From Candidatus Latescibacterota bacterium (GTDB lineage: Bacteria > Latescibacterota > UBA2968 > GCA-2709665), in contig CBDDDZ010000005.1 in assembly GCA_965226795.1 (NCBI GenBank), forward strand, positions 512,001-576,000: DNA of 64,000 bases, read 5' to 3'. Positions 15,810 to 37,053 of this stretch are shown piece by piece. The translations under genes and the position numbers were made by a program. Positions within the stretch are counted from its first letter, which is position 1. Each line of letters starts with the position of its first letter. Under the pieces are notes generated by a model, which was not told where the DNA came from, searched no databases, and was given only the letters and a program-made list of their open reading frames with translations.

Positions 15810-16993
15810 CACTGCGCGTCAACGTCAAACCGGAGTTATTTCGCTTGGCGCGGGAGCGGGCGGGCATTCACGTGGATGCTCTGGTGAAGCGATTTCCCAG
15901 ATATCTCGAGTGGGAATGCGGTGAAAAACAGCCAACGCTCAAGCAACTGGAGAAACTTGCCCGTGTCACCCATGCGCCGATCGGTTCTTGCTTTCTTTCT
16001 TTCGGAGCCGCTTGATGAACCGGTCCCGATTCCTGACATGCGAACGATCGGCAGTGAGATCGTGGGACGGCCCAGTGTCGAACTTCTGGATACCGTCTAT
16101 CTCTGCTTACAACGTCAGGATTGGTACCGGGACTATGCACGCATCGAGGGAGAGGATCCGCTACGGTTCGTTGGGTCCGAGACGACTCGGAGCGACGTTG
16201 AGTCCACTGCGGAAAGGATTAGAGGCGAACTGGGTTTCGACGTCAATGAGCGACGCAAACTGCGTACCTGGACCGAGGCGCTAAGGCGCTTTATTGAGCA
16301 GGCTGATTCACTGGGTATATTGGTGATGACAAGCGGGATTGTTGGCAATAATACCAACCGCAGGATGTACCCCGAAGAGTTTCGGGGCTTCGCCTTGAGC
16401 GACGATCTTGCACCGCTTGTATTCATTAACGGGGCCGACACCAGGGCGGCTCAAATGTTCACGATGGCTCACGAACTCGCACACATCTGGCTCGGCAAGT
16501 CGGCGCTCTCCGACGTTGGTGCTGTTTCCGTGCCGTCCCACGACGTAGTGGGTTGGTGCAACCGGGTCGCTGCCGAGCTTCTCGTGCCATTTGCGTCATT
16601 ACTTGAGAGTTACCGTGAGAGCGAGGAACTTCCAATTCAACTCAACCGCCTTGCACGAGAATACAAAGTCAGCACGTTGGTCGTGCTGCGGCGGCTTCAC
16701 GACGTCGGTGTACTCGACCGTGAGGAACTCAGGTCCGCCTACGGCCGGGAACTGGATCGCATAAGGAACATTGAACCGACAAGCGGCGGCAGTTTCCATC
16801 CAACGCTCAGGGCGCGCGTAGGCCGGCGGTTTGGCGGTGCCATTGTGACCAGCACATTAGGAGGACGGACTTCTTTTTCCGAGTCCTTCCGCCTTCTCGG
16901 TAAAAAAAAGTGTCGACGTTGCGGGCCTTCGCGGCAAGCCTGGAAGTGGGACCATCGAGCACGTTTTTGCGTCTCTTTGAAACGAGGTACTGA
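15806..16993 (+). pseudogene. XRE HTH + ImmA/IrrE metallopeptidase with two frameshifts (about 15995 and the A8 run at 16902-16909)
   Basis: N-terminal WECGEKQPTLKQLEKLA HTH in one frame; EEFRGFAL...FTMAHELAHIWLG (HExxH) in the next. Confidence 0.85.
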
Positions 16994-16998
16994 ACGAG

Positions 16999-18999
16999 AT
17001 GGCTACCCGAAAGAAAAAGACCCAACCGGAAAAGCCCACTGATCCCTTTTCGGAACTCACGTGGGAAGACCTGGAGGAATGGGCCGGCAATCGCATCGTT
17101 GCCCGGGGTCGGTCCTATGCGAGAAAAGGGGCTGTTCAGGAATTGAAACGCGCCGAAGACGGGGCCCTGATAGCCTGGGTGCTGGGTAGCCATCGCTACG
17201 CCACCCGGGTGAGCGTTGAGGGAAGAAAGGACCTGATATCCGGATGTACCTGTCCCTACTGGACGACGTGCAAACACGGGGTGGCTGTCGTGGTGGAATA
17301 TCTGGAAATGGCAAAGACCGGAACTGCCGTCGGCCGGGTTGAGGCAGACGACCCGCGGCTTGAGGAGTTGGATGCAATCACGGAAAACTCCGAGGAGCCG
17401 CTGGAATTCGACGTGGAGGAACTGGAAGAGGAGCCCGTCGAGACACTTTCGGATAACAATGGGTCAGGGCAATCCCGGCACTCTTCTTTGCGCGCGCACC
17501 TGCAAGAGCATACCAGGGCCGAACTTGTAGAGCTGCTGCTGGAACTCGCCGAAACGCACGACGAAGTGCGCCGGTCGCTTGAGGACAGGCGCAACCTGAC
17601 CTCGGGACAGACCCACAAAGTGCTGAAAAAGATACACTCCGAGATCGCAGCCCTGGAAGAACCCGTATGGGAAACTGATGATTACGGGTACCATCCGGCC
17701 AGTACAGAGCGCCTCAAAGCGATGCTCCAGGCGCTGGTGGCGGCCGGACAGTTTGACGCGGCGGTGCGACTGGGACCGGAACTACTGGCCGCGGGTTGCC
17801 GCGCGATGGAGTACGACCAGGAGGGAGAGTCAAGCGAAGCAATCGGCGCCTGCCTCGACGTTCTTTTCCAGGCCCTGGATACGACTTCCATGTCGCCCGC
17901 GAACCGGATCGAATGGGTTCTGGACATGGCCCTGGCCGACGAGTACGAACTTTGCTGCCACGGATTGGAAAACTTCAAGGATAAAGACTATGCGAAAAAC
18001 GATTGGTCTGCGGTGTGCGACCGCTTGGCGCAACGTCTCGAGGCCAATAGACCCCCGCGCGGAGGTGATGGACTTTCGACTGACTACAAACGGGACCGAA
18101 TTGTCGACTGGCTCATTCGCGCCATGGAAGTGGCTGGCAGGCAGAAAGAAATCGTCCCTCTGTGCAAGCGCGAAGCCCCCATCACCCTATCATTCAATCG
18201 CCTGGTGGACCGCCTGATGGCCGAGTGCAAGTGGGACGAGGCGAGGCACTGGTGCAGGCAGGGGCTTGAGGCGATTTCCGACCGGTATCCAGGCCTGCAC
18301 GCCGCGCTTCGAGAGCAACTGCAGACCATCAACCAGCGCAGCGGCAATCCACTCGCCGGGTTGGCCCTGCAGGCGGAGGAATTTTTCGCAAGACCCGGAT
18401 CAGACGATTTCCAGGCATTGTGCAAAGCTGCCCGCGAACTGGGCGTTGAGGAGGGCGTCGAGGCGTGGGGGCGGTACTATCTGCGAACCGGCCGGCGACC
18501 TCGAATCGGCAGGAAACGCGAGAGCGACCCGGAGATGGATTGGCCCCTGCCGGTCCCCGAAGTCGAAATGCCGCCGCCACGCGGCGACAATGAGGCGCCT
18601 ATGGTGGACGTGCTGGTCCAACTGGCCATTGCGGAGAAGAAGCCGAACGAGGTTGTGAAGTGGTACGACCATTCCCGTCGAACCAAAGCTGCGCACTGGA
18701 TGCGTGACATTTCCCTCGACGACGAGGTGGCCGACGCCATCGCGTCGACGCATCCCGACCGGGCGGTGGCAATTTGGAGAGAACTGGCGGAGCAGCTGAT
18801 CGCCCGGGTAAAGCCGAGGGGATACCAGGAGGCCGTTCCCTATCTGCGCCAGGTCAGAGATGTACTCATCCGGTCAGGTCGCGAGGGGGAATGGGAAGAG
18901 TACCTGGCCGCCTTGAGACAGCAGAACAAGCGCAGGCCCCGATGCCTGGAGGAACTGGATCGGCTGGAGGGTGGCCGCCGGCGCATTGTCGACGGCTGA
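16999..18999 (+). CDS. SWIM zinc-finger domain protein
   Basis: RGRSY..KGAV, CTCPYWTTCKH SWIM motif, helical C-terminus. Confidence 0.88.
   Translation: MATRKKKTQPEKPTDPFSELTWEDLEEWAGNRIVARGRSYARKGAVQELKRAEDGALIAWVLGSHRYATRVSVEGRKDLISGCTCPYWTTCKHGVAVVVEYLEMAKTGTAVGRVEADDPRLEELDAITENSEEPLEFDVEELEEEPVETLSDNNGSGQSRHSSLRAHLQEHTRAELVELLLELAETHDEVRRSLEDRRNLTSGQTHKVLKKIHSEIAALEEPVWETDDYGYHPASTERLKAMLQALVAAGQFDAAVRLGPELLAAGCRAMEYDQEGESSEAIGACLDVLFQALDTTSMSPANRIEWVLDMALADEYELCCHGLENFKDKDYAKNDWSAVCDRLAQRLEANRPPRGGDGLSTDYKRDRIVDWLIRAMEVAGRQKEIVPLCKREAPITLSFNRLVDRLMAECKWDEARHWCRQGLEAISDRYPGLHAALREQLQTINQRSGNPLAGLALQAEEFFARPGSDDFQALCKAARELGVEEGVEAWGRYYLRTGRRPRIGRKRESDPEMDWPLPVPEVEMPPPRGDNEAPMVDVLVQLAIAEKKPNEVVKWYDHSRRTKAAHWMRDISLDDEVADAIASTHPDRAVAIWRELAEQLIARVKPRGYQEAVPYLRQVRDVLIRSGREGEWEEYLAALRQQNKRRPRCLEELDRLEGGRRRIVDG
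18743..18999 (+). repeat. 257-bp direct repeat, copy 1 (3' end of SWIM gene)
   Basis: Near-identical to 21490-21746. Confidence 0.95.
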
Positions 19000-19619
19000 G
19001 CCTGGACCTTGCCCAAGTATTACGTCGGGCTTCCGCCAACGCATATTTCACACGAAGCCACAAAGACACGAAGGGAGACCCGAAACCTGTAACTTTCGTA
19101 CTTTGCGATACGTCCCGGATGCGGGTTGCCCTGACCCCGATCTGCCTCACGAACGAATTAACCGCGCCCTGGACATTTTAGAGTCACCCTAGCCTCGGCG
19201 TGAAGAGATAATGCTTCGAGATTGGTTCAAGTCAGTCTAATACGGGGGAGTATCGCTCGCTAGGTACTTGATCGACCGAATACTTGAAACCGGTCTCGAA
19301 CCTGCCTCGCCCACGGCGCCGCTTCCGCCGATCCAACTGAAGGATATTGAACTTCTATGCTGGATTGGCATTGAGCCGGAGGACGACGAGGAAAAATGTG
19401 TGAGCTCCTAGGGCCTCACGCTTCGTGATTTCCTATAGAGACCGTTCTATTTCATGCGGTATGTTTTTCCGTTCCAGAACATTACGCTAAGTTAAGGAGA
19501 ACATCCCCTATGGCCGACGAATGGAGCGCGGAAGCCGCCGGAGCATTACTTGGAGCATTTCGTCAGCATGTCCTGCTCCGTCCGGAGCGATCGATCAAGT
19601 TTGGAGTCGACCACACCCG

Positions 19620-21173: not shown

Positions 21174-21489
21174 GGAGGTTGCCGGGGGCCTGGTGCCGCC
21201 TGGCGGATTGGTTCGCCCGATAGAAGGGTGATCGGCAGGCGGAAGGGTGTCCCGAAGCCAGCCTCTCCCGCTGAGTGAGCTCAAGGCAGCGTCGCTTACC
21301 TGGGAACGCGGTTCGGAAAGCAAATAGGCGGGAAGTGGTCCTGGAGGGGCCGCGGATTCGTCCCTCCCTTTCGCCGAACCAGTCGCCACACCGGGGGACC
21401 GCGACTCACTCCAGGCAGTTGAACATCGTCGTGATGCCCCGAACATCCCGGGAAAGCGCAACAGCTCCGGGTCCTGAGCGCGGGCTGGA

Positions 21490-21746
21490 CGTCGACGCAT
21501 CCCGACCGGGCGGTGGTAATTTGGAGAGAACTGGCGGAGCAGCTGATCGCCCGGGTAAAGCCGAGGGGATACCAGGAGGCCGTTCCCTATCTGCGCCAGG
21601 TCAGAGATGTACTCATCCGGTCAGGTCGCGAGGGGGAATGGGAAGAGTACCTGGCCGCCTTGAGACAGCAGAACAAGCGCAGGCCCCGATGCCTGGAGGA
21701 ACTGGATCGGCTGGAGGGTGGTCGCCGGCGGATTGTCGACGGATAA
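21490..21746 (+). repeat. 257-bp direct repeat, copy 2 (stranded SWIM 3' end)
   Basis: Encodes the same IWRELAEQLIARVKPRGY...RRRIVDG; stop is TAA rather than TGA. Confidence 0.95.
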
Positions 21747-21805
21747 GCCAGGTCTGCCGGGTCGATAATCCGGTATCGAAGAAAACGGAAAAACGGAGGT
21801 GAACC

Positions 21806-23728: not shown

Positions 23729-24163
23729 ATGACTAAGAAACTGACTCCTGAAAGGCTGGCGTTTTACAGGAAGCTGCTGCTGGATAGAAAAAAAGACCTG
23801 CTGAAGCACACCCTCCTGGAAGATGCAGACATCAACGAACTGAGGAGAGACCACTCCGCGGATCCGTTCGATATGGCCGGCAACGCGACTTCGCTGGAGT
23901 TGATGGCGGCGCTGGGAAATAACGAAAGGCGGGAGCTTGCAGAGATTGATCATGCCCTGGGCAAGATCGAAAATGGCACGTACGGTATCTGCGAGGTGTC
24001 CGGGGAGTTGATCGGCGAACTCCGGCTGGAAGCCATCCCCACGGCGCGGTATACCATGCAGGTTCAGCAGGAACGGGAACGGAATCCTCAAATCATCGAC
24101 CGTCCAAAGCGGAGAGTAATTTCCGCCGAGGACCTGCCGATGAGCAGCGACGACGATTCATAA
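23729..24163 (+). CDS. DksA/TraR family protein with degenerate C4 zinc finger
   Basis: DPFDMA (DxxDxA); IDHALGKIENGTYGICEVSGELI..RLEAIPTARYT. Confidence 0.85.
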   Translation: MTKKLTPERLAFYRKLLLDRKKDLLKHTLLEDADINELRRDHSADPFDMAGNATSLELMAALGNNERRELAEIDHALGKIENGTYGICEVSGELIGELRLEAIPTARYTMQVQQERERNPQIIDRPKRRVISAEDLPMSSDDDS

Positions 24164-24182
24164 GGCGGGGCGAAATGAAATC

Positions 24183-24218
24183 AAAAAAGGGCGATTCGGG
24201 ATCGGGTCGCCTTTTTTT
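24183..24218 (+). terminator. Rho-independent terminator (bidirectional-looking)
   Basis: AAAAAAGGGCGATTCG-GGAT-CGGGTCGCCTTTTTTT. Confidence 0.85.
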
Positions 24219-24309
24219 GTGGCAGGTACCATTAAGGGTGGTAGCATCCCGGCAACGTTGCGCACGCATTAAACGCCACCACGATTAACTTCAACTCAGG
24301 TTGACATCC

Positions 24310-25272
24310 ATGTCTTACACCAGGCAAATCGTGCGTCAACTGGACATACTCAGAGAGCTCATGTCGCGGACTTATGGAGCGACAATCCAGGATCTCGTAG
24401 GAAAATTCGGGGTAACACGGCGGACAATAGAGCGAGATCTTGACAACCTGGGCGACGCTGGCTTCACGATATATCCGGAAAAGCAGGGGCGCCAGAACCA
24501 GTGGAAACTCATTCACGACAAGGAGATGCCGCCCCTGAACTTCCCTGTAGGCGAACTCATCACCCTGACCTATATCGGCGGCATCCTGGAAGGAACACCA
24601 TTCAAAGACGAGTTTCAGAAAACCCTGAACAGGATCCGGACCACGCTGCCGGATAAGATGCGCGCATTCCTGGAACAGGCGGCCTATCATCCGCATATTC
24701 GAGGGCAGAAGGCGCAGGTCTCCCCGCAGGTATTCGCAATGGCGCATCGCGCAATCACGGAACGACGAATTTGCAACGTAACCTACCGCGCGATCACCAC
24801 CGGACAAAGCAAGACGTATTCGATCATACCTTTCAGGTTCTTGTACCATTATGATGGTGTATATCTGCTTTGCCGCAATCCGAACTATGACAATTTGCTG
24901 ACCCTGGCAGCGGAGCGGATCCAGGAACTCGAGGTCACATCCCAGTCTTTCGAGGATTCCATCGATTCCAATGTTGAAGAGCAACTTCACCAGGCCTTCG
25001 GTGTAGTACTTGAATCTCCCATGGCGGTTCAAGTTCGCTTCTCGGCATCCCAGGCACCTTATATCAAACAACGGATATGGCATCCCTCACAGGAGATCAA
25101 GGAATTGGATGATGGCGCCATTGTCCTTTCTTTCCGAGCCGGCGGGATGTACGAAATCAAGTCGTGGATTCTGAGCCATGGCGCAAGCGCCGAAGTCCTG
25201 GCGCCAGCGTCCCTGCGGGAGGAAATAATCGAAGAAATCGAGAAAAACCTGAGTTCGTATAAAAAAACCTGA
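24310..25272 (+). CDS. WYL-domain transcriptional regulator (wHTH-WYL-WCX)
   Basis: FGVTRRTIERDLDNL HTH; IIPFRFLYHYDGVYL...LAAERI WYL core; WHPSQ...EIKSWILSHGASAEVLAPASLRE WCX. Confidence 0.93.
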   Translation: MSYTRQIVRQLDILRELMSRTYGATIQDLVGKFGVTRRTIERDLDNLGDAGFTIYPEKQGRQNQWKLIHDKEMPPLNFPVGELITLTYIGGILEGTPFKDEFQKTLNRIRTTLPDKMRAFLEQAAYHPHIRGQKAQVSPQVFAMAHRAITERRICNVTYRAITTGQSKTYSIIPFRFLYHYDGVYLLCRNPNYDNLLTLAAERIQELEVTSQSFEDSIDSNVEEQLHQAFGVVLESPMAVQVRFSASQAPYIKQRIWHPSQEIKELDDGAIVLSFRAGGMYEIKSWILSHGASAEVLAPASLREEIIEEIEKNLSSYKKT

Positions 25273-25276
25273 CTAC

Positions 25277-25297
25277 ATACGACTTAGTTCGTCGTAT
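25277..25297. promoter_or_regulatory. Perfect palindrome ATACGAC-N7-GTCGTAT, putative WYL-regulator operator
   Basis: ATACGAC TTAGTTC GTCGTAT lies between the WYL stop and the ATPase start; possible -10 TACTTT at 25306-25311. Confidence 0.75.
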
Positions 25298-25415
25298 ATG
25301 CTGTTTACTTTGTGGCGTGTTCAATTGAGAACGCGCCTTTTTCCTGTACCGCTCCCCCGGTACGCGCGGAGAGGACTCACGTCGAGGTTCGTTGAAGTTT
25401 AAACACCGGGAGAAA

Positions 25416-28211
25416 ATGCAGACCATGCGCAGACGCGATTTGCTCGGTTTGTTTTCTGATAGTGGGTGTATGTCGCCGACGAAGGATTTCAGCCTCCACC
25501 TTGCGCGCACCTATCTGCTGAACGTTCTGCGTGCCGCACAGCTCAACAGGACCATTCGGACAGGGCTTTTGAAATGGATGGCGGGTAATGAGGACCGGCT
25601 CAAGTCGCTCGGCGTTCATCGCCTTCGGCGTAAGGTAGACACTCCAAAAGGCAACCTTCGATTCATCGAGCATGCGGTTCAGTGCCTTGAGCGTAAGACC
25701 CGCCGCCCACCGCCGCGCTCCCCCGACGCAGAGGCCACGTACCTGGTCGTCCAGCGTTTCTCGCTTGGTCCTGCGGCTGCAGGGTTGCTTGAATTCGTAC
25801 ACAGTTGCAAATACAACGACTTCCTTCGCACCATTTTGCACAATATCGAGTTCCGATGCTCAAATCCTGCGGAGCAATTGGCACTCTGTCTTAATCGTCC
25901 TCGCCGCGACGTAGAAGTCGGACTGCGGGAACTCGCCGAATCCGGCATCGCAGATTGTAAGACCGTCGCTCGGTTGGACGAATATAACACTGCCGACGAC
26001 CTCGTCCACGACAGGTTTTGGGAAGTGTGGCATCCGCCTGTGAGAGACATGGACGAGTTGACGGCGCGATTGGTTGGCGAACCCTGGGCTGCCCGGTTGC
26101 GCCTCGACGACTTTGCGCACCTCTTGGAACGCGACGATATTCGGCGCACGTTGAACGCAGCAAAGCGCGAGCGTTGCGCCGGCGCGCCGGCACCTGGTGT
26201 CAACATCCTGCTGGTGGGCAGGGCTGGCACTGGAAAAACCGAATTCGCCAAAACCATCGCGGAATCGTGTGGCATGACGCTCTTCTCTGTTGGCACAGAC
26301 GAGATTGATGACGAGGAATCCTGCAATACCGCCCACGACCGGCGCTCGGATTACCGCAATGAGTTGCGGATGGCGCAGACACTGCTTCGATCTATGCCGG
26401 AGGCCGCAATTCTGTGCGACGAGGCCGAGGACGCGCTGGAGTCCAGCAGCGGTTCACGCCTCGCCAATCACCGGCTGATTGAGGAAAATCCCGTACCGGT
26501 GATTTACACCGCAAACAGTCTGAAAGACCTGGACGAGAGCATGCTGCGGCGATTCACCCACGTCGTCAGATTCACGGCCCACGGCCCGAAGCGCCAGACC
26601 GCCATTTTGAGGCGAATGCTCGCCGAGAGTGGCATCGAGGGTATCGACGCCTCCGCGTGCGCCAGACGACTCGTGGACGAACTCGAGTGTACACCGGGCA
26701 TCCTCGCAAAGGCCATCGAAACGACCCGCCTCGTCAGTGGCGCGGAAGACGATCTCTACCGCTATTGCGAAGGCCTCGAACGTACCATCGCCACGCAATA
26801 CGCCCGACCGAGGCTGGGACCGCCGGTCCGAGGCGAACTCCCGTGGGAGGCGTTTTCACATCTCGAAAAGGACGCCGCAGACGTCAGGGAAACCCTCGTT
26901 TCAGTCAAGGACAGCGAGAAGAAGGGGATCAACATCCTCCTGTACGGACCGCCGGGAACCGGCAAGACCGAATTTGCCCGCACCCTGTGCGCTGACGTTG
27001 GCGCGCGACTCTATGCCGTTGGCGATAACGAGGTGGGACCCCAGTCGCGGATTTCCGTATCGCGTACGGAAGCATTGGACTTTGCACTCGAAGCCCTCGC
27101 TAACGAACGTGGCGCAGTGGTCTTCTTCGACGAAATGGAGGACTTCGACCGCGTGGAGAAACATTGGCTTAATCGGGTCCTCGAAGAGAATCCTGTGCCG
27201 ATCATCTGGGCGTGTAACTCCATTGACTACTACCGGATGTTTCAGCCGTTTTTCATCGACCGGATAATGCACGCGATCGAGTTTCGCCACATGTCCGTCG
27301 GGGCGAGGAGGCGCGTGTTCACAGGTATTCTTAGCAAGAAGCAAATTCCGGAGGCCGAAGCGTGCAGACTTGCCGTGGATCTGGCGCACGACCGGAAAGT
27401 GACGCCGAGGCAGGTGGCCATGGCTGCCGGTCAAGCGGGAATGGTCAGCGGAAATGCGGAGACCATACGGCGCAACATCGCACAGAAGGCGAAACTGCGC
27501 CACGGGATTCGCTTGCCGGAAATCAGACCGATCGCGTAGTACGACCCGGCCCTTGTATGCGCCGACGTGAATCTGGAGGATTTGACCGACCGGATTGTCT
27601 CCTTGGCCGCCCGCCGATTCGCGCTGTGCCTCTACGGGCCCCCTGGAACCGGCAAGACGGCTTACGTGGGCTACATTGCCGAACGGATGGGGATGGATAT
27701 CCTGCCTAAAAGGGCTTCCGATCTCCTGAGTCCCTGGGTTGGACAAACCGAGCAGAAAATGGCAGCGGCTTTTGCCGAAGCGCTCGAGACCGGCTCGTTC
27801 CTGGTATTCGACGAGGTCGATTCCCTCCTGATGGACCGGCAATATGCCGTTCGCTCGTGGGAAACGAGCATGGTCAACGAATTGCTCAGCCAGATGGAGC
27901 GGCACCCACTTCCTTTCGCGTGTACCACCAACCGGTGGGAGGCGCTCGACCCGGCGGCAACTCGGCGTTTCCTGTTTCGCGTTGAGTTCTTCTTTATGGA
28001 TCGGCCACGAATCGAACGGGCATTCAGGTTCTTCTATGGTTGCGAAGCGCCGCAGGAGACACTCGCATTGGACAAACTCACGCCAGCGGATTTCGCAAAC
28101 GTGCGCGAACGTGCGAAGATCCTGAATTTTCTCAAGGACCCCGAACGTATCGGCCGTGCACTCGCCGAGGAGTGCCGCGCAAAGCCGGGCGGCGGGCAAC
28201 TCGGGTTCTGA
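25416..28211 (+). pseudogene. AAA+ ATPase with three AAA modules, interrupted by in-frame TAG at 27537-27539 (or a split/readthrough gene)
   Basis: Walker A GRAGTGKT, GPPGTGKT, GPPGTGKT; Walker B ILCDE, VFFDE, LVFDE; ORFs 25392-27539 and 27567-28211 share a frame with open sequence between. Confidence 0.85.
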
Positions 28212-28284
28212 AGGAGCGGTGCTGACAGGCTAGGTCCCGCGGAACGCCGAAATCAGATCCAAACGCACAAAGGAGGTTGACGAG

Positions 28285-28914
28285 ATGTTCTTGTCGAAGT
28301 GGTTGGTATCGTTGTTGGCATTGAGTATCCTGACGAATCCGATATATGCAGAGGAACCAGAAAGAATCTCAAAGCTGTCAAACAGCCTCGAACTCGTATT
28401 GGGTGGAGGAACTCACAAATACGCCGAAGAGATCGACCCTCATCCCGGCATGGCTTCACTTGGAACATCACTCTTCGGATACCACGCGACGGATCGTTCC
28501 ATGATAGGCTTTCGATACTCGCTAAGTCAATACACGACCCAAAGGGTTGTTTCGATCACCGGACCTTCTGGCGATACCTTGTCACTTTCGTCCGGAGAGA
28601 AGGAAAGCTGGAAGGTATTTTCAGCCCTCGTTCTATACAGGCGATCCTTCAGAATCCGGAAACCTGTCCAACCGTATTTCGATATCGGACTCGGCGCCGC
28701 AAGCAACTACGCCGGATATGAAGGAGGAAGAAAATTCGCCAGTGCGATTGCGGTTGGCGCGAATTGGAGATTCACGAGCCACTGGGTCGTCGCGATTGAA
28801 GCGCGAGGCATTGCAATAAACACGTCGCTGCAAGGACATACGGCAGGGCCGGTTCCCGACGGGCCACTTACCGTCGTGGAGTCGACGCTGGGAATCGGTT
28901 GGACCCTGAAATAG
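28285..28914 (+). CDS. Exported outer-membrane beta-barrel-like protein
   Basis: AAGGAGG RBS, signal peptide, alternating beta pattern (QPYFDIGLG), C-terminal LGIGWTLK. Confidence 0.7.
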   Translation: MFLSKWLVSLLALSILTNPIYAEEPERISKLSNSLELVLGGGTHKYAEEIDPHPGMASLGTSLFGYHATDRSMIGFRYSLSQYTTQRVVSITGPSGDTLSLSSGEKESWKVFSALVLYRRSFRIRKPVQPYFDIGLGAASNYAGYEGGRKFASAIAVGANWRFTSHWVVAIEARGIAINTSLQGHTAGPVPDGPLTVVESTLGIGWTLK

Positions 28915-29097
28915 TGTTCCGTCCCAGAAACATGTCACCATTCATCCGCCGATTCATCCCGTCTCGCTGCGTTGCCATCGCTCGCCGACCTTGCGCAGGT
29001 CGCCTCGCTCAGACGCCGGTTCCTGAGCCTGTCGAAGGATGCCAGCCGGGCGACTCGTCGACCGAATTTCGGCAATCTATTTCCGGGACAGAACACT
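28913..29097. mobile_element. MITE family B, copy 1, carrying a 22-bp insert at about 29018-29039
   Basis: TIRs AGTGTTCCGTCCCAGAAA / TTTCCGGGACAGAACACT; homologous to 36256-36419. Confidence 0.85.
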
Positions 29098-29252
29098 GGC
29101 CGGATAGTGGAACGAAAAAATCGCCTGCGAAACGATTTGAGATTTTCTGGTGTGAAATTAGGGTGATTGCCGAGCGGATCGTGAGAACTGGCCGAACGAG
29201 TAGAACGTAAATCGATAATCCGTCCTTCGAACATAAAAACGGGAGATTTAAC

Positions 29253-30401
29253 ATGCACCCGGTTGATCTGCAGGAGAAACTGGAACAATTGGAGAGGCGA
29301 CAGTGTTGGCACAAGCGGATGATTGCGGGTCTGATTGTAGCATTCCTATTCACTGCCTCGCCGACGTTGACAAAGGCGCCCAAGTGGCTTGAAGGTGCAT
29401 TCTTGCCTGGACGCCTCGAATCCAACCCGACAAAGGCCGATTTCAGTAAAGCGCTATCAAACATGAACAGAATGGTTTCGAATCCGTCCGCGCTGCTTTC
29501 GAATTCGACACAGATGCTATCAAATGCTGCAGAGACGGAAAGGTTGAACAAGACGGCGCTTGCCAGAGAAGCGCAGATTGTCCAGGCAACGGAGTTTCAA
29601 ATCGTGAATGATCGTGGACGCGTCGTTGCGGCTATAGGCGCCTCGGATACCGGAGATGGCACGGTGGTATTGTGGAACCGCGAAGGAAAGGTGATATCCG
29701 TGTTAGGCGCGGACACACGCGGCAATGGCGCGCTGGAAATTGTGAACTCGTTGGAGCGGACGACAGTATCGATGGGCGCCGATGAGTCAGAACATGCCAA
29801 TGGTTGGATCAGTGTGGGCAGCGCCTCACAGGCGAGTATCCAATCGCTGGTGCTCGAGTCAGGCGTCGTCGCGATAGGCATCGTCAACAGCGACGGCAAT
29901 GTGGCAGCCCTGTTGGGTTCAAGTGAAAATGGCAATGGTGTGTTCAAGATATTAAACCGTTCTGGCAATATCGTTATTGACGCAGGAGCCACTGAGGTTG
30001 GCCACGGTGGCTTGGACATTTTCAACGCTTCAGGAGGGATAGCCGCCGCCGTGGGACATGTGAAATCAGAGTATATACACGGTGGGGTGTTGGGAGTTTT
30101 CAATGCTGATGGTTTGCCTGTCGCGTCTATGCAATCGGACGAAAGAGGCAAAGGCGAACTGGTCATAGATCGCGGCAGATTTGCAGCATATGTTGATGAT
30201 AACGGCAACGGGATTGTGGAAACCCGGGAGGAAAGTGGACTCTTGCGGTGGTCGTCTGAAATGGTGCCAGGCGGCAATGGCGGTACATCGAGCGGTTTAA
30301 TGGGTGACTTCGACGGGGATGGAGACGTCGATTTTACCGATTTCCTGACATTCGCAGGCAATTTCGGCAAGACGATTGACGATCAAACTGACATGAATTG
30401 A
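29253..30401 (+). CDS. Membrane-anchored beta-repeat protein with C-terminal EF-hand/dockerin-like domain
   Basis: N-terminal TM; roughly 22-aa repeats such as G.G.L.I.N..G; C-terminal GDFDGDGDVDFTDFLTFAGNFG. Confidence 0.7.
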   Translation: MHPVDLQEKLEQLERRQCWHKRMIAGLIVAFLFTASPTLTKAPKWLEGAFLPGRLESNPTKADFSKALSNMNRMVSNPSALLSNSTQMLSNAAETERLNKTALAREAQIVQATEFQIVNDRGRVVAAIGASDTGDGTVVLWNREGKVISVLGADTRGNGALEIVNSLERTTVSMGADESEHANGWISVGSASQASIQSLVLESGVVAIGIVNSDGNVAALLGSSENGNGVFKILNRSGNIVIDAGATEVGHGGLDIFNASGGIAAAVGHVKSEYIHGGVLGVFNADGLPVASMQSDERGKGELVIDRGRFAAYVDDNGNGIVETREESGLLRWSSEMVPGGNGGTSSGLMGDFDGDGDVDFTDFLTFAGNFGKTIDDQTDMN

Positions 30402-30532
30402 CGCAAACGATTAATGGTAAGGGCGACAGGAATGTGAGTGGTGAGACGTAGCCGAATAAAGGCGGTGAACCACGCTACAGGCGCAACCCGGAATCTCGAA
30501 GCCTCTTCGTGGGATACCAATAGGAAACGGAG

Positions 30533-31180
30533 GTGGATTCTTTGGAACTGTCAATTGCTCGGCTGATCCGCAAGCGCACGCAGGATCTTGGTATCACCCG
30601 CGGTGAACTTGCCCGCCGTATGGGATATACCAATGTCACCACGGGATGTCGACGATTAGACCAGATATGCGCCGGAGACGTTAAAATGGCGGAGAATCTG
30701 CGGGTCGAGCTTGCCCGGGGCCTCGACGTGGATGCCGAAGTGATCAATGATTCTATCGAGTACACCCGCGCCAAACAGCTTTCGGCGGAAGACAAGGCCT
30801 ATCGTGAATCTTTTAAGCCACATGCGGTGATACTCACAGAGTATAAGATACCGACACAGATCACATTTTACGCAATGACCGGGGGATCCCGTCATCGGAT
30901 TATTCCGTTCAAGGAGGGGTCAACCCCTGAAACGTACGCGGCACAGGCGCGAGAGGCCCTTCCGAACGTGGTTCGCTTTCTCGGGCGTCCAATTGGATAT
31001 GTGGTAAACTACACTCCAGATTTCGCCTTAAAGTTTAACAAGGAGGGCAGATTGATAGGAAGGCTCGACCGCACGTTTCGCGTGGGGCAATCAGGCGTCG
31101 TTATCGGGGGCAAGGAAGTCGGCGAAGGGGTCTGGTCCACCCTTTTGGGTACCGCATCGGTTTCTCCTTCGCCCAAATAA
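30533..31180 (+). CDS. Hypothetical protein with N-terminal XRE-like HTH
   Basis: LGITRGELARRMGY; GGAG upstream of GTG start. Confidence 0.65.
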   Translation: MDSLELSIARLIRKRTQDLGITRGELARRMGYTNVTTGCRRLDQICAGDVKMAENLRVELARGLDVDAEVINDSIEYTRAKQLSAEDKAYRESFKPHAVILTEYKIPTQITFYAMTGGSRHRIIPFKEGSTPETYAAQAREALPNVVRFLGRPIGYVVNYTPDFALKFNKEGRLIGRLDRTFRVGQSGVVIGGKEVGEGVWSTLLGTASVSPSPK

Positions 31181-31262
31181 GCTTGACACGTTTTGCAGGG
31201 AGTAACTGGGAATCCGCTATATCGCGGAGGGTGGAATGCGAATCCGTGGAGACATGGTCCTT

Positions 31263-31287
31263 GTAGGGGCGCCCCTTGCGGACGCCC
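31263..31287 (+). repeat. GTAG-type REP palindrome
   Basis: GTAGGGGCGCCCCTTGCGGACGCCC; relatives at 34998, 36836, 49724, 57924, 58400, 58469. Confidence 0.75.
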
Positions 31288-31434
31288 GACTCTGGCAAAG
31301 ACGCGGCCGCAGCTGCCAGTCAGTTGGGTCGTGCCGCATGATTGCATTGATTCTGCGCGAAGGCCGAGAATAGTGACCGGCGTCGAGTATGCCCGCCAAA
31401 GCCGGGATTATTTCACCGGTTCGGGAGGAGAGTG

Positions 31435-31933
31435 ATGTCCGGGAGCTACCGAGTAATCCGGCAACAATTCTCCGAGTTGCCATTCGTGACCTTTCATATC
31501 TATGAGGTATATTATAAGGAAAACGATAAAATTACGGATTGGCACGAGTTTCGGGACGAAATCCACGGGGGATCGCTGGAGGAATTGCGAAAAAAAAATC
31601 AGGTTCTTTCTCCACGCATTCCGCTATCCGATACTTGAAGAGATAGAAACGGGAAAAGGGCGGACTCTCGTTCCTATCGATTCCGAATTTCGAATCAACG
31701 ACGGGCGTTATATCGAACTCGTCGATCTAGGGTGTGAGGCGTCAAAATACGTCGATCGATTGCTGGGCAGCCATCCACTCGTTAACAAAAATAGTGTTCT
31801 ACGAGGCCTGTATATAGAGTTCTGGTTGGCTCTTGACATGCTCACGGAAGAGGCTGTCCTTTTGGAGTATGGAAATGACAGAGCCAAACCCACGCGACAA
31901 AATAACGTCAGACAACTGGAACTCCCATTCTAA
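31435..31933 (+). pseudogene. Hypothetical protein, frameshifted at the A9 run (31590-31598)
   Basis: YRVI...FHIYEVYY..GGSLEELR continues in the other frame as FFLHAFRYPILEE. Confidence 0.6.
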
Positions 31934-31968
31934 TGTAGCATATTGGGCGGAGAGGAGCGCGGGATCTG

Positions 31969-32364
31969 GTGTTCAGAAAGAGCAAGATTGTTGTTGTCGA
32001 CGGCGAAAAGACCAGGGAAAGGAAGGCGGTAGTAACGTGGAGCGACTCTTTTGTCACTCTCCGATTCAAGGACGGCAACGTTTCTGCGCGGTATCCCAGA
32101 CATGAAGGCGTTTTTCGTTATGACCGCATGTCGGGAATGGTCTACGAGCGGTCCAAGCATTCCCGGATCGTAAGCGCGATATTGCTCTCTCCACTGACGC
32201 TGTTTTCCAAGCGCAAGCATCACTGGTTTTCGTGGAATTACGTCGATGCGGATAGCAGCAAGCGTTCAATTCTGCTTCGCATTGACAAGAAAGAGGAACG
32301 GCTATACAGGCGCCAGGTTCCGATCTTGACAGGCCTGGAGCTTGAAACCATAATTGAGGATTAG
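31969..32364 (+). CDS. Hypothetical protein (PH-like beta fold possible)
   Basis: 131-aa ORF; GAGGAG upstream. Confidence 0.6.
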   Translation: MFRKSKIVVVDGEKTRERKAVVTWSDSFVTLRFKDGNVSARYPRHEGVFRYDRMSGMVYERSKHSRIVSAILLSPLTLFSKRKHHWFSWNYVDADSSKRSILLRIDKKEERLYRRQVPILTGLELETIIED

Positions 32365-32538
32365 GGCCTTGGAATTCAGTCCTGCCGGGACGGCGGGTAC
32401 GGGCCTTGCGCTGCTGTAGCCATCTGCTTGTTTTTGTGACGTTCTTCCGGACGTCAAGAATGCAGAGAGGCCTTTCAAACTAGACAGTTTCGTTGATCTG
32501 AGTCCCGCGCGAAATCTGCGTCGAAACATGGGGAAAAA

Positions 32539-33288
32539 ATGGAGCGTTTTCGTGAATCGTCTATATCACGGCTGTTGACGCACGCCGACCGGTATGATTG
32601 TGCCGCAATTACGGCCTTTCGAAAGTACGAAGGCGGCCGAAAAGGACGGAAATATACCGAGAAGGAGAACGCTCAGAGGAATGCCAGCCTCCGAGTAAAG
32701 CTTACCGCCAGTGTCTATGAAATGGCGGCATTGGGCGGATCCTATTTTGAGGGCGGTGAAGTAACACGAGACCGTTTCTTTTTTGTGGTCAACAATGGAT
32801 GGCGTGGGGATCCACGTTCCCTCTACCAGTTTACGCAGAGGATGAAGCGTTTCGGAGAAGAATTCGAGCAGGACGCCGTTTTGATAATCCCGAAGGGTGC
32901 CGTGCGTGGGGATGCCAGCCGACCTGCCGTGCCATTGGTAGAACGCTCCAAAAGGCGGGGTCGGGCGTTCTTCATTCGCACAAATGATAGTCCTGAAAAC
33001 TGGATGAAAGATCAGGATTTGATGAGCGCTACGGTCGATGAGACCCAAATCAACCGTGCGGTCGGCGATTTTCTCAATGTTGTTAATGGTCATTCCCTTC
33101 ATGTTCAGAGTAATAATGAAGATGAGGAAAGCGATGAAGTCGAAATTACGGCTGTCCACTATCTGCCCGGGAATATTTCTTCATTGCACTTAGCGAACCT
33201 AAAAGGAAGGAAGCCGTGGCGAGAGGCAGATGTGAGGTGGTTGCGGGGTTCGAAGCCGCCCGCAGATTATTCTCAGATATTCGAGTAG
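32539..33288 (+). CDS. Hypothetical protein resembling a phage family (SSxSR...ITAFR...EN.xRN..L...G.Y.E...FFV...G..F.QDAVL)
   Basis: Motif order recalled from phage hypothetical proteins; no search run. Confidence 0.55.
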   Translation: MERFRESSISRLLTHADRYDCAAITAFRKYEGGRKGRKYTEKENAQRNASLRVKLTASVYEMAALGGSYFEGGEVTRDRFFFVVNNGWRGDPRSLYQFTQRMKRFGEEFEQDAVLIIPKGAVRGDASRPAVPLVERSKRRGRAFFIRTNDSPENWMKDQDLMSATVDETQINRAVGDFLNVVNGHSLHVQSNNEDEESDEVEITAVHYLPGNISSLHLANLKGRKPWREADVRWLRGSKPPADYSQIFE

Positions 33289-33390
33289 GAGTTGCCGTGA
33301 GGCGCTCGGCCGGGATGATTGCCGTTGTCGGCGACAATAATTCCAGGATCGGTGATTTGGCCTCGGTTCAAACGGGGGAGGTTGTTCAGC

Positions 33391-33951
33391 GTGAAACTGC
33401 ACAAAGTAGTATTCGGAATTAAGGAGCATCACATAAGGAGCGGCGTCGCGTGGCATTGTGAGCAATGCCCGGGTGCATTGGCTGTTCTTGATCGTGTCGT
33501 TCCGGATGTGTGTGTATCGCTGGATGATTTTTTGGTATGCTTTTCACATCGGTCCGGCTGCGAGACGTCCGCCAGTGGGTCACGGGAGAGTTACAGGCAG
33601 GAAGTGCCCGAGGAACTTTCTGATTTCACGTACCGGTTTGATCGCAGGCACGAAGGCGTCCCTGTTGAATTTGTCCTTGACGTTCCTGAGTGGGCCTACA
33701 ACGCGGAGAAGGCGGCTTGCTTCAGGCTAGTGAAAACGCTGGTGAGGGTGGCGGCCGCCAATCGCAACCAGGGTTGGATTGATGTTGTGGTTCCCAGTTG
33801 GCACTCAATGGAGAAGATTCGGTTGAAGAAAGACAGGATCCCCGAGGATGTGTTTCTCGCCGCAGCCCCCGAGAAGCGTTTTCATGCGTGGGTCAATGTA
33901 GACAACAATTTAAAAGCCGCTTTGCATTTTGCGGATTGGGAAGAAACTTGA
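33391..33951 (+). CDS. Hypothetical protein, phage-like N-terminus (HIRSG...CEQCPGALA)
   Basis: GGGAGG RBS before GTG 33391. Confidence 0.55.
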   Translation: MKLHKVVFGIKEHHIRSGVAWHCEQCPGALAVLDRVVPDVCVSLDDFLVCFSHRSGCETSASGSRESYRQEVPEELSDFTYRFDRRHEGVPVEFVLDVPEWAYNAEKAACFRLVKTLVRVAAANRNQGWIDVVVPSWHSMEKIRLKKDRIPEDVFLAAAPEKRFHAWVNVDNNLKAALHFADWEET

Positions 33952-34557
33952 GTAAATTTCAATTCGAAAGGAGCCACGCTGTGCCTATAATAGTGAGACA
34001 ATTTCCCCAAAGATCGGAGAGCGATGTAGAGGGCCAAGGAACGGGTTTTCCAAAAAATGAAGATATAGAAGGGGCAACATCAAGCGAGGTGCGGCGGCGG
34101 CGATTAACGGAGGGTTAGAAGTGGAAGAATTATTGACACTGGGGATCGGCGGGCGAAGAATCCGTTAGTAGGGGCGTGCGACAGCTGGTATCAACCTACG
34201 AAGGCGGAAATGGATGATGACGTGGGTATAGAGGCCACGCAGCAGGAGGTAGCCCGCGCGTTGTTTGGCGGCAGGTTCGCCGGCGCCAAATCGGGCAAGA
34301 GAGAGGTTGTCTAACGTGCCTGGAGAAGGTGGATGGCCAGCACGTATAGTGGGATGGCAGGTTTGCATTCCGGCGGGTATTCTGGTACCGGGGTATATAG
34401 TCAGCATTCTGATAGCGGTCTTGAAATCCGTGCAGACGCGAATTCACCCCGCGTATTTAGAGGATCAACCACCGCGCGGAAAGTAGTGGAATTTGATGTT
34501 TTTTAAAGGCAACCAGAGCAGGGCCAAGTGTTCAGACTTCGCTTGGGGAGGCGCGGC

Positions 34558-34947
34558 ATGAACGGAGAGAAAAACGACCAAGAGAACCTTCAGTGGAAGG
34601 GACGAACGGCGGCGGACGCGGCGGCCAAGGAGGCCAGGGTGATGGCGGCCTGGGCGCGGGAAACCGCAGAGTGGGCGACCGCCGAATATTCGAAGCGGGA
34701 TGGCCAATTCAGGCGGCTTGCGGAAATGGAGTATCGCGGGGCCCTTGCGAGGTGTTGTTTGGAAGCGAAGGATGCGGCTAAATTCTGGGATGCCGCGGCG
34801 GACAAGTGGGAGGCCGGGGAGCGCGGCCTGGCGACGGACTTCGAGGAGGAGGCGAACGCTGCGATGCTGAACGTAATGGACACGCTGGACAAATCGGACG
34901 ATCTCCGGAAGATCGAGCAGGAGAGGAACTCGGGCGCGCAGCCCTGA
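34558..34947 (+). CDS. Hypothetical Ala-rich helical protein
   Basis: GGGAGG then ATG 34558; about 129 aa. Confidence 0.5.
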   Translation: MNGEKNDQENLQWKGRTAADAAAKEARVMAAWARETAEWATAEYSKRDGQFRRLAEMEYRGALARCCLEAKDAAKFWDAAADKWEAGERGLATDFEEEANAAMLNVMDTLDKSDDLRKIEQERNSGAQP

Positions 34948-34981
34948 AATAAACCAGTTTGAGGCGGGATTCTTCGGCCAG

Positions 34982-35130
34982 GCCGCCACCCAAACCAGGG
35001 CAACCACAAGGGTTGCCCCTACGGCGCACCGGGTAGGTTGTGATCTAAAGTTGGGTTTGACGTAAACGTGATTGGATCGTGTGAATTGTGAGCAAGAAGG
35101 GCGACTCCAAAAGGAGTCGCCCTTCTTGCT
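34982..35130 (+). repeat. About 150-bp direct repeat (REP plus terminator-like hairpin), copy 1
   Basis: Homologous to 36820-36968; hairpin AGCAAGAAGGGCGACTCC-AAAA-GGAGTCGCCCTTCTTGCT. Confidence 0.88.
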
Positions 35131-35131
35131 G

Positions 35132-35320
35132 GTGCGCCATGCCTGGCGCGAAGTGCCGGTAGCAGATGTCGGTGCTTTGAACCGGTAAGGGAAACCGAGC
35201 CGGGAAGTGACTGGGAGGGTGGGAGTCCCTCCAGAGGCCGTGGTGACCGGAACTATTAGCGGAACAGCAAGGGCGTCGTCGCGAGGTGGGTCTGACGGAA
35301 GCTGAATGCAAGGTCCCGGC
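35132..35320 (+). ncRNA. Truncated group II intron (class IIC-like), 5' part of domain I
   Basis: Starts GTGCG one base after the hairpin; GGGTGGGAGTCCC and TTAGC..AACAGCAAGGGCGTC...TCTGACGGAAGC...GCAAGGTCCCGG follow the IIC domain I pattern; no RT or domain V seen. Confidence 0.75.
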
Positions 35321-35361
35321 CCTCGTCAATCACATCCTCAGCGCCCATAACGATTTCCCTT

Positions 35362-35673
35362 CTATCGCCTCCTGGCCCTCTTGCGCCTATTTTGTGCCTT
35401 CTTCCCATACGACCCACTATGCCGAAATTCCCCGTCTACAACGTGAATCTCGTCACCTTCCCGTCTGAAATAGACCCGATACCTCCCATGTTTAATCTTG
35501 TACTCGGTAATTCCTGGTGGAAGACCTTCAACCTTCGTCGCTCTCAACTCCCGTCTCTTGTTTGGATTCCCAAGACTTTTGATCTTATCCAGAAGAACAG
35601 GTCCAGCATTTGACGGCAAATTCTCCAAAAACTCCTCTACCTTATCCCGAATAACTACTTTCTGCTCTACCAA
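35362..35673 (-). CDS. RelE/ParE-like toxin
   Basis: KVEEFLENLP...KIKSLG.P...KVEG...ITEYKIKHGRYRVYF. Confidence 0.72.
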   Translation of the reverse strand: MVEQKVVIRDKVEEFLENLPSNAGPVLLDKIKSLGNPNKRRELRATKVEGLPPGITEYKIKHGRYRVYFRREGDEIHVVDGEFRHSGSYGKKAQNRRKRARRR

Positions 35674-35737
35674 CGGGACCCTCTCTTGTGGCGAAGGACT
35701 GTGGCCTGCCGCGTACGCTGTCGCTTATCCGCCTCGC

Positions 35738-35953
35738 CTAACGTCTGCCCCATTTCCGCTCCATTTTCTCAAAAACCCGATTCGTCTCGTCAACCGTCAA
35801 CATTCTGCTCTCACCCGTCCGCAACTCTTCGGTGGTACGCAATGCCCGCGCTACCTCCGCAGCCTCGTCCTCATCCTCCCGGATCACGTCTTCCGCACGC
35901 TCCCCCCTCACTACTCGATTGATCCATCCGATAACAAGAGTACCAGCACCCAT
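35738..35953 (-). CDS. Putative cognate antitoxin
   Basis: AGGAGG RBS; 71-aa protein with acidic central segment, directly upstream of the RelE-like gene. Confidence 0.55.
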   Translation of the reverse strand: MGAGTLVIGWINRVVRGERAEDVIREDEDEAAEVARALRTTEELRTGESRMLTVDETNRVFEKMERKWGRR

Positions 35954-36219
35954 TACGTCCTCCTTTCCTTGTCTCTGCCCACGACGGCCCTAACGCGCTT
36001 TATCATTTCAAACACTGTGCTCATGACATGACCTCCCTGTTAAGTTGTCATAAATTTCTTGCATCTTGTCAAGGGGAAAGATTACACTTTCCTCACCACC
36101 AACACCAACCTTCATCTATTTAACGGGTTATGAAATGGACGAGTTAAGCCAAATTTCTTCTTCTGCCGATATAACGACCGCTAATTTCACCGTGATTATG
36201 GCATTGATCAACATGCTAA

Positions 36220-36543
36220 CAGTCCGTTGAAAAAGTTGCTCTGCAGGCGAGGTAGAGTGTCCCGTCCCAGAAATATGTCACCATTCATCCGACGATTCAT
36301 CCCGTCTCGCTGCGTTGCCATCGCTCGCCGACCTTACGCAGGTCGCCTCGCTCAGGCGCCTTGCCAGCCGGGCGACTCGGCGGCCGAATTTCAGCAATCT
36401 ATTTCCGGGACAGAACACTTGCCATTGTGATCGAAGACAAGGCGCGCGACCGAGTCGAATCGGGGGATTCGGGAAGGGAGCGCAACGCAGTAATTCGGCC
36501 ACAAGAGCCGGCCGCAGACCGGATGGACTTTTTCAACGGGCTG
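36220..36543. mobile_element. MITE A copy (inverted) with MITE B nested at 36256-36419
   Basis: CTAA direct repeats at 36216-36219 and 36544-36547; A sequence resumes at GCCATTGTGA after the B TIR. Confidence 0.9.
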
Positions 36544-36819
36544 CTAAGCCACTTTAGACCGATCTACGACGTTGACGGCATCCTCTTCATCATAATAATC
36601 GTCCCCTATGGGTGGGCCTCATCGAATTCACCATTCAGAATCAGCGACCTTAAGGTTTCGGCAACATCGCCAATGCACTCCATTCTTCTTCCGATTCCAG
36701 ATAAAGACGCATTTCTCTGTTGCACCGATACGCCCTCATACCAACCTCCAAATGTTACTATGAGTCATCATCTATTTTTTGATTCATCTTCGAATGGTCG
36801 ACCCGAGGTGCGGGTGAGA

Positions 36820-36968
36820 GCCGCCACCCAAACCAGGGCAACCACAAGGGTTGCCCCTACGGCGGATCGGGCAGGGTGAGATCTGAAGTTGGGTTTGACG
36901 TAAGCGTGATTGGATTGTCGGGATTGTAAGCAAAGCGGGCGACTCTTTTGGGAGTCGCCCGCTTTGCT
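36820..36968 (+). repeat. About 150-bp direct repeat, copy 2 (no intron after the hairpin)
   Basis: Hairpin AGCAAAGCGGGCGACTC...GAGTCGCCCGCTTTGCT shows compensatory changes relative to copy 1. Confidence 0.88.
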
Positions 36969-37053
36969 GTCGTGGCTTTGTCCAGATTATTGTCGAATCC
37001 GGCGCAGTTCGTTTCTGATCTATCGGTGATGTCCCGGCAACGTGATTCCGCGT

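Follow-up and report, generated by a model that had tools for sequence, protein, structure and literature searches.

A WYL regulator and a three-module AAA ATPase form a conserved candidate cassette behind a DriD-type operator in Latescibacterota, with a probably inactive copy

In a 64,000-nucleotide (nt) stretch of a Candidatus Latescibacterota genome, hereafter the window, a regulator of the WYL family stands directly before a long ATPase gene with three AAA modules, raising the questions of whether the two genes belong together, what would switch them on and what the ATPase would do once made. The window (G000:C5:512001-576000) belongs to a genome of 5.41 Mb that is 96% complete. The original prediction, made from the letters of the window, had seen in the pair a regulator, an operator and an unusual ATPase that single-stranded DNA (ssDNA) or phage infection might induce. 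Our analysis points to a two-gene cassette in which the WYL protein would activate a three-ring ATPase, a predicted protein unfolder that would feed ClpP, and of which the copy found here is probably inactive; we assign this reading a probability of about 0.55.

The regulator had been taken for an intact gene with winged helix-turn-helix (wHTH), WYL and WCX domains, and all three domains are indeed recovered in an uninterrupted frame (Table 1). The perfect palindrome reported a few bases after its stop codon exists as an inverted repeat starting 4 nt past the stop, but it is not contiguous, its arms of 7 base pairs being split by a 7-nt spacer. It is identical to the operator consensus given for DriD in the cited passages of PMC13004042 and PMC10853764. 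Perfect repeats of this 7-N7-7 form are fairly common (718 in 5.41 million genome positions); the exact operator sequence, by contrast, is unique genome-wide and has no copy at one mismatch, and the box pattern of the clade likewise has one exact match. Scored with a matrix trained on 27 other sites, the window box ranks first genome-wide, at 28.1 versus 17.3 for the next other site. No genome-wide regulon was found in matrix and pattern scans of the whole genome, in which four sites with one mismatch were noted, and from the sequence the regulon looks local, apparently comprising one promoter.

Two elements between the box and the ATPase gene had escaped the original prediction, a -10-like hexamer and a terminator hairpin. 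The box ends 8 nt upstream of the hexamer, and the 11-nt gap between half-site and hexamer is the same in two DriD promoter sequences printed in PMC13004042, with the DriD -10 hexamers assigned by eye; according to the passages of that paper that bear on this point, DriD sites keep one distance from the -10 element and cover the -35 position. A consensus scan returned no plus-strand sigma-70 promoter here, and a box with a -10-like hexamer and no -35 element is, as a predicted arrangement, the geometry of an activator. The hairpin shows covariation among 18 distinct relatives at 4 of 11 pairs, with 16 cells changed on both sides, which none of 500 shuffles reached and slid controls fell below, the structure having been drawn from these same sequences, which are kin. 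The predicted transcription start (about 25318, some 7 bases past the hexamer) falls within the left arm of the hairpin, and folding indicates that an RNA starting at 25320 does not form it. Very probably, then, a WYL dimer would bind the box at the -35 position and recruit RNA polymerase, with the hairpin ending the regulator's own transcript and the induced transcript escaping termination because it starts inside the left arm. Such an overlap of promoter and terminator would be a compact way to keep a sensor expressed and its effector silent.

The pairing recurs well outside the window. WYL stands directly upstream of the ATPase gene in 15 of 15 related-genome loci, the window included, and is present in 18 of 41 genomes, namely those 15 and three in which the ATPase has been lost or replaced. 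Among genome and plasmid loci, 87 of 100 were scored, after dropping six duplicates, three with broken genes and four too near a contig end, and a metagenome set contributed 80 loci (71 two-module, two three-module and seven partial); both scans drew on the best 80 of more than 400 matches, which biases them towards close relatives, whose loci are not independent of one another. WYL is adjacent to the ATPase gene in 40 of 58 two-module loci and 1-3.5 kb away in seven more, and at five plasmid loci it lies beside the ATPase gene or one gene off in every case. A box with its -10-like hexamer directed towards the ATPase was found in 15 of 16 three-module WYL loci (1.3 expected by shuffling; none on the opposite strand), in 37 of 40 two-module loci with adjacent WYL (3.7 expected; five on the opposite strand), in all seven with WYL at 1-3.5 kb (0.7 expected; two on the opposite strand) and in five of the 11 without WYL (1.1 expected). 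In the metagenome set, the ATPase has WYL next to it in 28 loci and further off within the locus in 12, and no WYL was seen in 12 loci with room for it or in 19 on short contigs; the box is present in 16/24, 7/10, 0/12 and 5/11 of these, respectively. Both the linkage of WYL to the ATPase and the operator are conserved far beyond chance. Rare linkage to WYL genes, or absence of the palindrome, had been named beforehand as what would speak against the pairing, and the neighbourhoods of the ATPase homologues displayed neither. The pairing is no one-off; it is the form that one lineage has of a two-ring cassette that is very widespread and has cultured carriers, Fuscovulum and Novosphingobium among them. 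In a quick tree, three separate WYL clades partner the ATPase family, and the presence of at least three such clades with the same box before these ATPases suggests strong selection for inducible expression.

What the switch would control is a frame of about the predicted length, 928 codons with three Walker A/B modules; the prediction, though it spoke of a stop-repaired module, had left unplaced an in-frame TAG at codon 705, between the second and third modules. Walker A and B are kept in all modules and the double arginine in A and C, whereas the aromatic pore loop is confined to C (57/58 and 9/10 proteins, against none in A and B). Module C, which here lies behind the stop, combines Walker A/B, sensor 1, an arginine finger and the aromatic pore loop, as a type II-like unfoldase module does. 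In a careful module tree of 53 rows, A and B group as sisters (support 96/89) within ring 1 and C falls within ring 2, both placements share the same nearest two-module relative, and a larger quick tree agrees on the ring assignment. The three-module form is, on this phylogeny, the product of one duplication of ring 1 in a two-ring Cdc48-like family, the modules of which branch apart from Cdc48 in the 53-row tree. An intact relative yielded a predicted structure with a predicted local distance difference test score (pLDDT) of 78.5 and a predicted template-modelling score (pTM) of 0.60, and its best solved relatives are VAT, Rix7, NVL, Drg1 and Cdc48/p97. For the N-terminal domain there was no Foldseek match at E 0.001 or better and the best structural Z was 5.4, which is no proof of a new fold. 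PF22977 (WHD) is matched in 23 of 86 family members and is absent from the window's own ATPase; through this domain there may be a likeness to Afp15/Pvc15.

The proteins of this family also share an x-G-F tail. It closes 68 of 69 three-module sequences, 58 of which have I, L, V or M before GF, 57 of 59 two-module sequences (39 as IGF) and 72 of 78 metagenome ATPases (67 with a hydrophobic first residue). Such an end is rare otherwise, being found in 12 of 3548 long frames of the genome. The ClpP-docking motif is given as V/IGF/L in the relevant passage of PMC8182300, and the genome's ClpX carries KKTIGFG. The invariant GF of one alignment (A5) was discarded as evidence, its rows having been picked for having GF.

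Taken together, the activator geometry and the unfoldase motifs of the last ring support that part of the earlier proposal by which the WYL protein would switch on an unusual unfoldase-type ATPase, with the proviso that the window copy is most likely inactivated by the TAG. An intact protein would probably assemble as a stacked hexamer in which ring C threads the substrate and A and B, lacking pore loops, act as scaffold, spacer or timer. A tentative further step is that the [ILVM]GF tails dock in the hydrophobic pockets of ClpP as the IGF loops of ClpX do; if true, this opens the possibility of a ClpP partner outside the Clp family. The fullest version of the proposal is doubtful as a whole, namely that intact alleles encode a triple-ring unfoldase, arisen by one ring-1 duplication and induced through a WYL protein with an unstudied pocket that senses a nucleic-acid signal, which plugs into housekeeping ClpP by free GF tails and constitutes an inducible non-Clp AAA+ protease for damage or phage defence in many phyla.

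Several observations weigh against our reading, and the first concern the signal. R38, E41 and R42 of the window WYL align with the base-reading R37, E40 and R41 of DriD, and all 15 relatives compared have equivalents of R37 and R41 (at E40, nine have Q, five E and one H). In the ssDNA pocket, however, Y168 and Y192 are kept and R176 is K, but R178, R204, W206, R207 and Y240 are lost, being replaced by Y, L, L, A and V, and DriD is impaired by R207A, Y240A and R176A-R178A according to the passages cited from PMC9186387. Alanine at R207 occurs in 90 of 133 full-length WYL representatives and is thus largely a subfamily trait; R204 is kept in 94 of the 133 and lost in 14 of 15 members of the window WYL's clade. 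The window WYL matches DriD only locally (E 2.7e-12), as opposed to the full-length match of a WYL beside a two-ring ATPase (E 4e-60), and it falls in a clade of its own in a quick tree built without DriD itself; the WYLs adjoining two-ring ATPases are mostly close DriD relatives. Its solved-structure matches are DriD chains exclusively. By these comparisons the window WYL is not a DriD orthologue; it belongs to a different WYL subfamily with another ligand pocket. Since the pocket differs from that of DriD, we can only infer the signal, and we lean slightly towards ssDNA, or some nucleic acid related to it, produced by damage or infection. Because the genome carries LexA (two homologues above the cut-off, G000:C5:1384905 and 1638380) and no second box, WYL is not a global damage regulator here.

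Further adverse points concern linkage, effector and setting. Thirteen of 29 scored three-module loci lack an adjacent WYL, three of them Latescibacterota paralogues without a box and ten, mostly from Acidobacteria, with a weak box in four. The structural matches of the ATPase span AAA domains only, at a template-modelling score of about 0.2. None of the three-module proteins ends in IGF itself, and in 10 of 69 the residue before GF is T, P or A. A ClpP-like gene was found in none of 180 loci, so that the partner would be housekeeping ClpP, encoded in this genome at G000:C3:92650-93261. Eight island proteins scanned against defence models gave no full match and included no recognised nuclease or defence gene.

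One alternative is unlikely, though less so than the others: the switch would be the same, and the ATPase would be a remodeller or activator of co-regulated cargo nucleases (DUF2779, PD-(D/E)XK) or of other complexes, without ClpP, its GF tail serving ring assembly or another partner. A C-terminal FG element is used in oligomerisation by Vps4-type ATPases. Relatives carry DUF2779, PD-(D/E)XK or GmrSD genes near the pair, many loci have a DUF2779 nuclease close to the ATPase, and PD-(D/E)XK, UvrD, phospholipase D or SNF2 genes come after the pair at the five plasmid loci. Extra boxes point in the same direction: locus L020 has a second exact box before a DUF2779 gene, and in L115 (G035:C1:758000-770500), which has a related WYL, one of two boxes precedes a PD-(D/E)XK gene pair and the other a two-ring ATPase, a layout possibly close to the ancestral one. 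The missing ClpP neighbour is equally what such a remodeller would lead one to expect. Yet the cargo is variable and the window's genome has no DUF2779 match, and still the tail is kept almost everywhere. It is only through such neighbours in relatives that a defence role for the cassette is suggested.

Other neighbourhoods were observed along the way. L113 (G023:C2:754000-763000) has WYL and a degenerate box-hairpin before a Sel1-repeat gene, with no ATPase there, and about 4 kb on a second exact box with a hairpin before an open reading frame resembling, by eye, a replicative helicase. In L087 (10095-10811) and five other loci a protein with a Clp_N domain and a helix-turn-helix (HTH) lies near two-ring ATPases, a possible adaptor or regulator.

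It is decidedly improbable that the ATPase instead uses its winged-helix N-domain to act on DNA or on proteins bound to it, remodelling forks or protein-DNA complexes in repair, and is neither a general unfoldase nor a defence factor. The winged-helix signal of the N-domain and the repair genes in the DriD and DdaA regulons are in keeping with it, but the fold matches are weak (Z 5.4 or less), the pore loop of ring C is of the protein type, and a patchy distribution (in 6 of 15 genomes from the genus) with frequent decay fits accessory or conflict genes better. Phage records held one match of two-module length in 50,697.

In the window itself, the TAG removes module C, the sole module with a pore loop, and the conserved tail. 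Contigs of two runs from different studies span the TAG with 0 and 3 differences elsewhere, which rules out sequencing error as its source; one run (X1) possibly stems from the very sample that gave the window, and the other (X2) comes from another study. A protein cluster of 11 members at 95% identity has Gln at codon 705, and a survey of 151 genomes from the phylum gave 19 full-length matches, spread over 16 genomes, of which the window copy alone has a stop. Intact natural alleles include P0006 and the G008 gene. Other alleles are broken in other ways, by a frameshift (P0065), by in-frame deletions (P0063, P0064), by loss of the N-terminal half (G034) or down to a remnant (G007); a TAG listed for G001 proved to lie outside its 929-codon open frame. 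Recoding or pyrrolysine found no support: TAG is a regular stop that ends 364 of 1439 long frames, and in this 96% complete genome no tRNA with a CUA anticodon was present among 50 tRNAs and no PylS N-terminal domain was found. The window copy is probably inactivated, and the 704-residue product, with neither pore loop nor tail, would very probably be non-working. It is very improbable that the TAG is read through, or that a two-ring product of 704 residues is functional, so as to leave the module alive here; regulator, box and hairpin are intact, the allele occurs in two studies and module C differs from an intact allele at 3 of 223 residues, but so few changes behind the stop also fit a recent mutation, and the remaining 18 of the 19 full-length matches are stop-free.

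Least credible is a WYL protein that represses the ATPase promoter until infection, as BrxR and CapW do with the same domain layout at defence islands, since CapW sites overlap the -10 element and the BrxR site lies downstream of it, whereas here the box replaces the -35 with the spacing seen for DriD, and no plus-strand sigma-70 promoter that could be repressed came out of the consensus scan.

Our preferred reading, an activated three-ring unfoldase, may be set beside the systems that it most resembles. The regulatory logic is known from DriD of Caulobacter crescentus (PMC9186387, PMC10853764, PMC13004042) and DdaA of Moraxellaceae (PMC13010146, PMC12392091), as far as the passages cited go, and is shared in the wHTH-WYL-WCX layout, the operator consensus, the base-reading arginines and the box at -35 at a fixed distance from the -10. 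The cassette differs in the WYL subfamily and ligand pocket, in a regulon that seemingly comprises one promoter although the genome has LexA, in the overlap of terminator and start site, and in the target, no ATPase being named as a DriD or DdaA target in those passages. Two supposed occurrences of the ATPase elsewhere were rejected: the gene beside driD encodes a TonB-dependent transporter and SXT s026 a COG2378 regulator. To Cdc48/p97, VAT, Rix7/NVL and Drg1 the effector is linked by tandem classical AAA modules, by the best sequence and fold matches and by the pore loop in the last ring; it has three modules instead of two, an N-domain with helical and winged-helix parts in place of the CDC48 one, and a GF tail, and it gave no CDC48_N match and 82.7 bits with the CDC48 model against a cut-off of 802.65. 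The [ILVM]GF tripeptide resembles the ClpP-docking IGF loop of ClpX and ClpA, although here it is a free C-terminal tail (LGF, VGF, MGF or TGF in three-module proteins) in place of an internal loop and its docking is a prediction only; the ATPase is no Clp/Hsp100 member (27 bits with the ClpA model, against 993). IetAS (IetA ATPase plus S8 protease) provides the nearest PADLOC and NCBIfam defence models, but the match covers one module, at 93.5 bits against a cut-off of 510, and no S8 protease occurs among the neighbours scanned. BrxR and CapW share a WYL regulator heading a variable island and differ in being repressors whose operators are of other sequence and sit on the -10 or past it; the box here ends before that element.

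As the original prediction had supposed, no named system is recognisable, named defence models giving only partial IetA, TRIP13 and mad8 matches. The literature searched, which in addition to the sources above took in parts of PMC12041258, PMC9122601, PMC4012209, PMC2791158, 10.1101/2022.01.04.474952 and 10.1101/2020.12.16.423150 and had supplements and most subscription journals outside its scope, held no description of the WYL-ATPase pairing, the three-module form or tail docking. Judged by its genes, the cassette is real, conserved and unnamed, a rare three-ring variant with a promoter like that of DriD and an ATPase that is likely an unfoldase of Cdc48 type, and a member of neither family. 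Its target is a widespread ATPase family for which our searches found no characterised member, and a chain that stacks three classical AAA modules, of which one ring has the pore loop, raises a clear question of structure.

Table 1 Features of the WYL-ATPase unit and its surroundings, in window positions
Feature	Position	Strand	Remarks
dksA/traR-like gene	23729..24163	+	Pfam zf-dskA_traR; conserved left border of the island
Strong terminator-like hairpin with A and T runs, 3' of dksA	24182..24219 (approximate)	none	z -5.3, 0/200 shuffles
wHTH-WYL-WCX transcription factor	24310..25272	+	320 residues, intact; HTH_11, WYL and WCX all above Pfam cut-offs
Operator ATACGAC-N7-GTCGTAT	25277..25297	none	at the place of the -35; exact DriD consensus
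-10-like hexamer TACTTT	25306..25311	+	11 nt past the GTCG half-site; aligned in the stretches of 19 relatives
Intrinsic-terminator-like hairpin	25314..25342	+	hairpin 25314-25337 plus T5; z -4.1
ATPase frame, three Walker A/B modules	25425..28211	+	928 codons; open frame with in-frame TAG
N-terminal domain	25425..26125 (end approximate)	+	helical hairpin and winged-helix-like part; model pLDDT 91
AAA module A (ring 1 copy)	26126..26830 (borders approximate)	+	GRAGTGKT, CDEAED, RRF; no pore-loop motif
AAA module B (second ring 1 copy)	26831..27536 (start approximate)	+	GPPGTGKT, FDEMED, D-R for R-R; no pore-loop motif
Premature TAG, codon 705	27537..27539	+	between modules 2 and 3; Gln in 95%-identical allele
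AAA module C (ring 2 type), 3' of the TAG	27540..28211	+	GPPGTGKT, pore loop PWVG, FDEVDS, RRF, LGF tail
Variable cargo, rest of the island	28285..37000 (end approximate)	none	beta-barrel protein, HTH-like gene (by eye), S-AdoMet-lyase-like gene below cut-off, hypotheticals

The setting of the unit is as had been described, just past a dksA-like gene with a strong hairpin and at the edge of an accessory region. The dksA-like gene is syntenic in 10 of 10 same-genus stretches, and the unit forms the first part of a variable island between it and an aldolase-like gene, a site that lacks the pair in four genomes of the genus and holds a remnant in one. No second DriD-type box was found in the cargo (28285..37000). 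Among the matches listed, the closest named ones to the ATPase come from Latescibacterota assemblies. About half of the window's words occur in three runs that carry the label sponge metagenome, and two RNA runs share few (0.19 and 0.06).

Two further WYL sequences occur in the same genome. One (G000:C5:3050226-3051089, L101) has its own upstream inverted repeat, TGTCGCA-N4-TGCGACA, and, by eye, a HigA/HigB-like pair upstream; in the other (G000:C5:1131199-1134372, L103) a WYL domain lies inside an 878-codon open frame.

At the 3' end of the ATPase gene (27952-28300), DNA identity to locus L116 of genome G008 rises to 96%, as against 49-88% over the rest of the gene, which suggests recombination in which cargo is exchanged and the end of the gene serves as an arm. 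Within the cargo, the S-adenosylmethionine (S-AdoMet)-lyase-like protein (32539-33288) scores 26.4 bits with PF23780 against a cut-off of 28; a relative at 30% identity, above the cut-off, lies 3' of the WYL-less three-module paralogue of L024, and similar genes come after L025 and L078. The family, one of phage anti-restriction, thus recurs in these islands. About 7 kb upstream of the unit, a protein of the IrrE/Peptidase_M78 family, of damage-response type, is encoded at 15921-17042. The 3'-end stretch of a 666-residue gene (18774-19181) is repeated some 2.5 kb downstream (21275-21802), and the two repeats flank a higher-GC gene of 550 residues, an arrangement that we read as an insertion with partial duplication.

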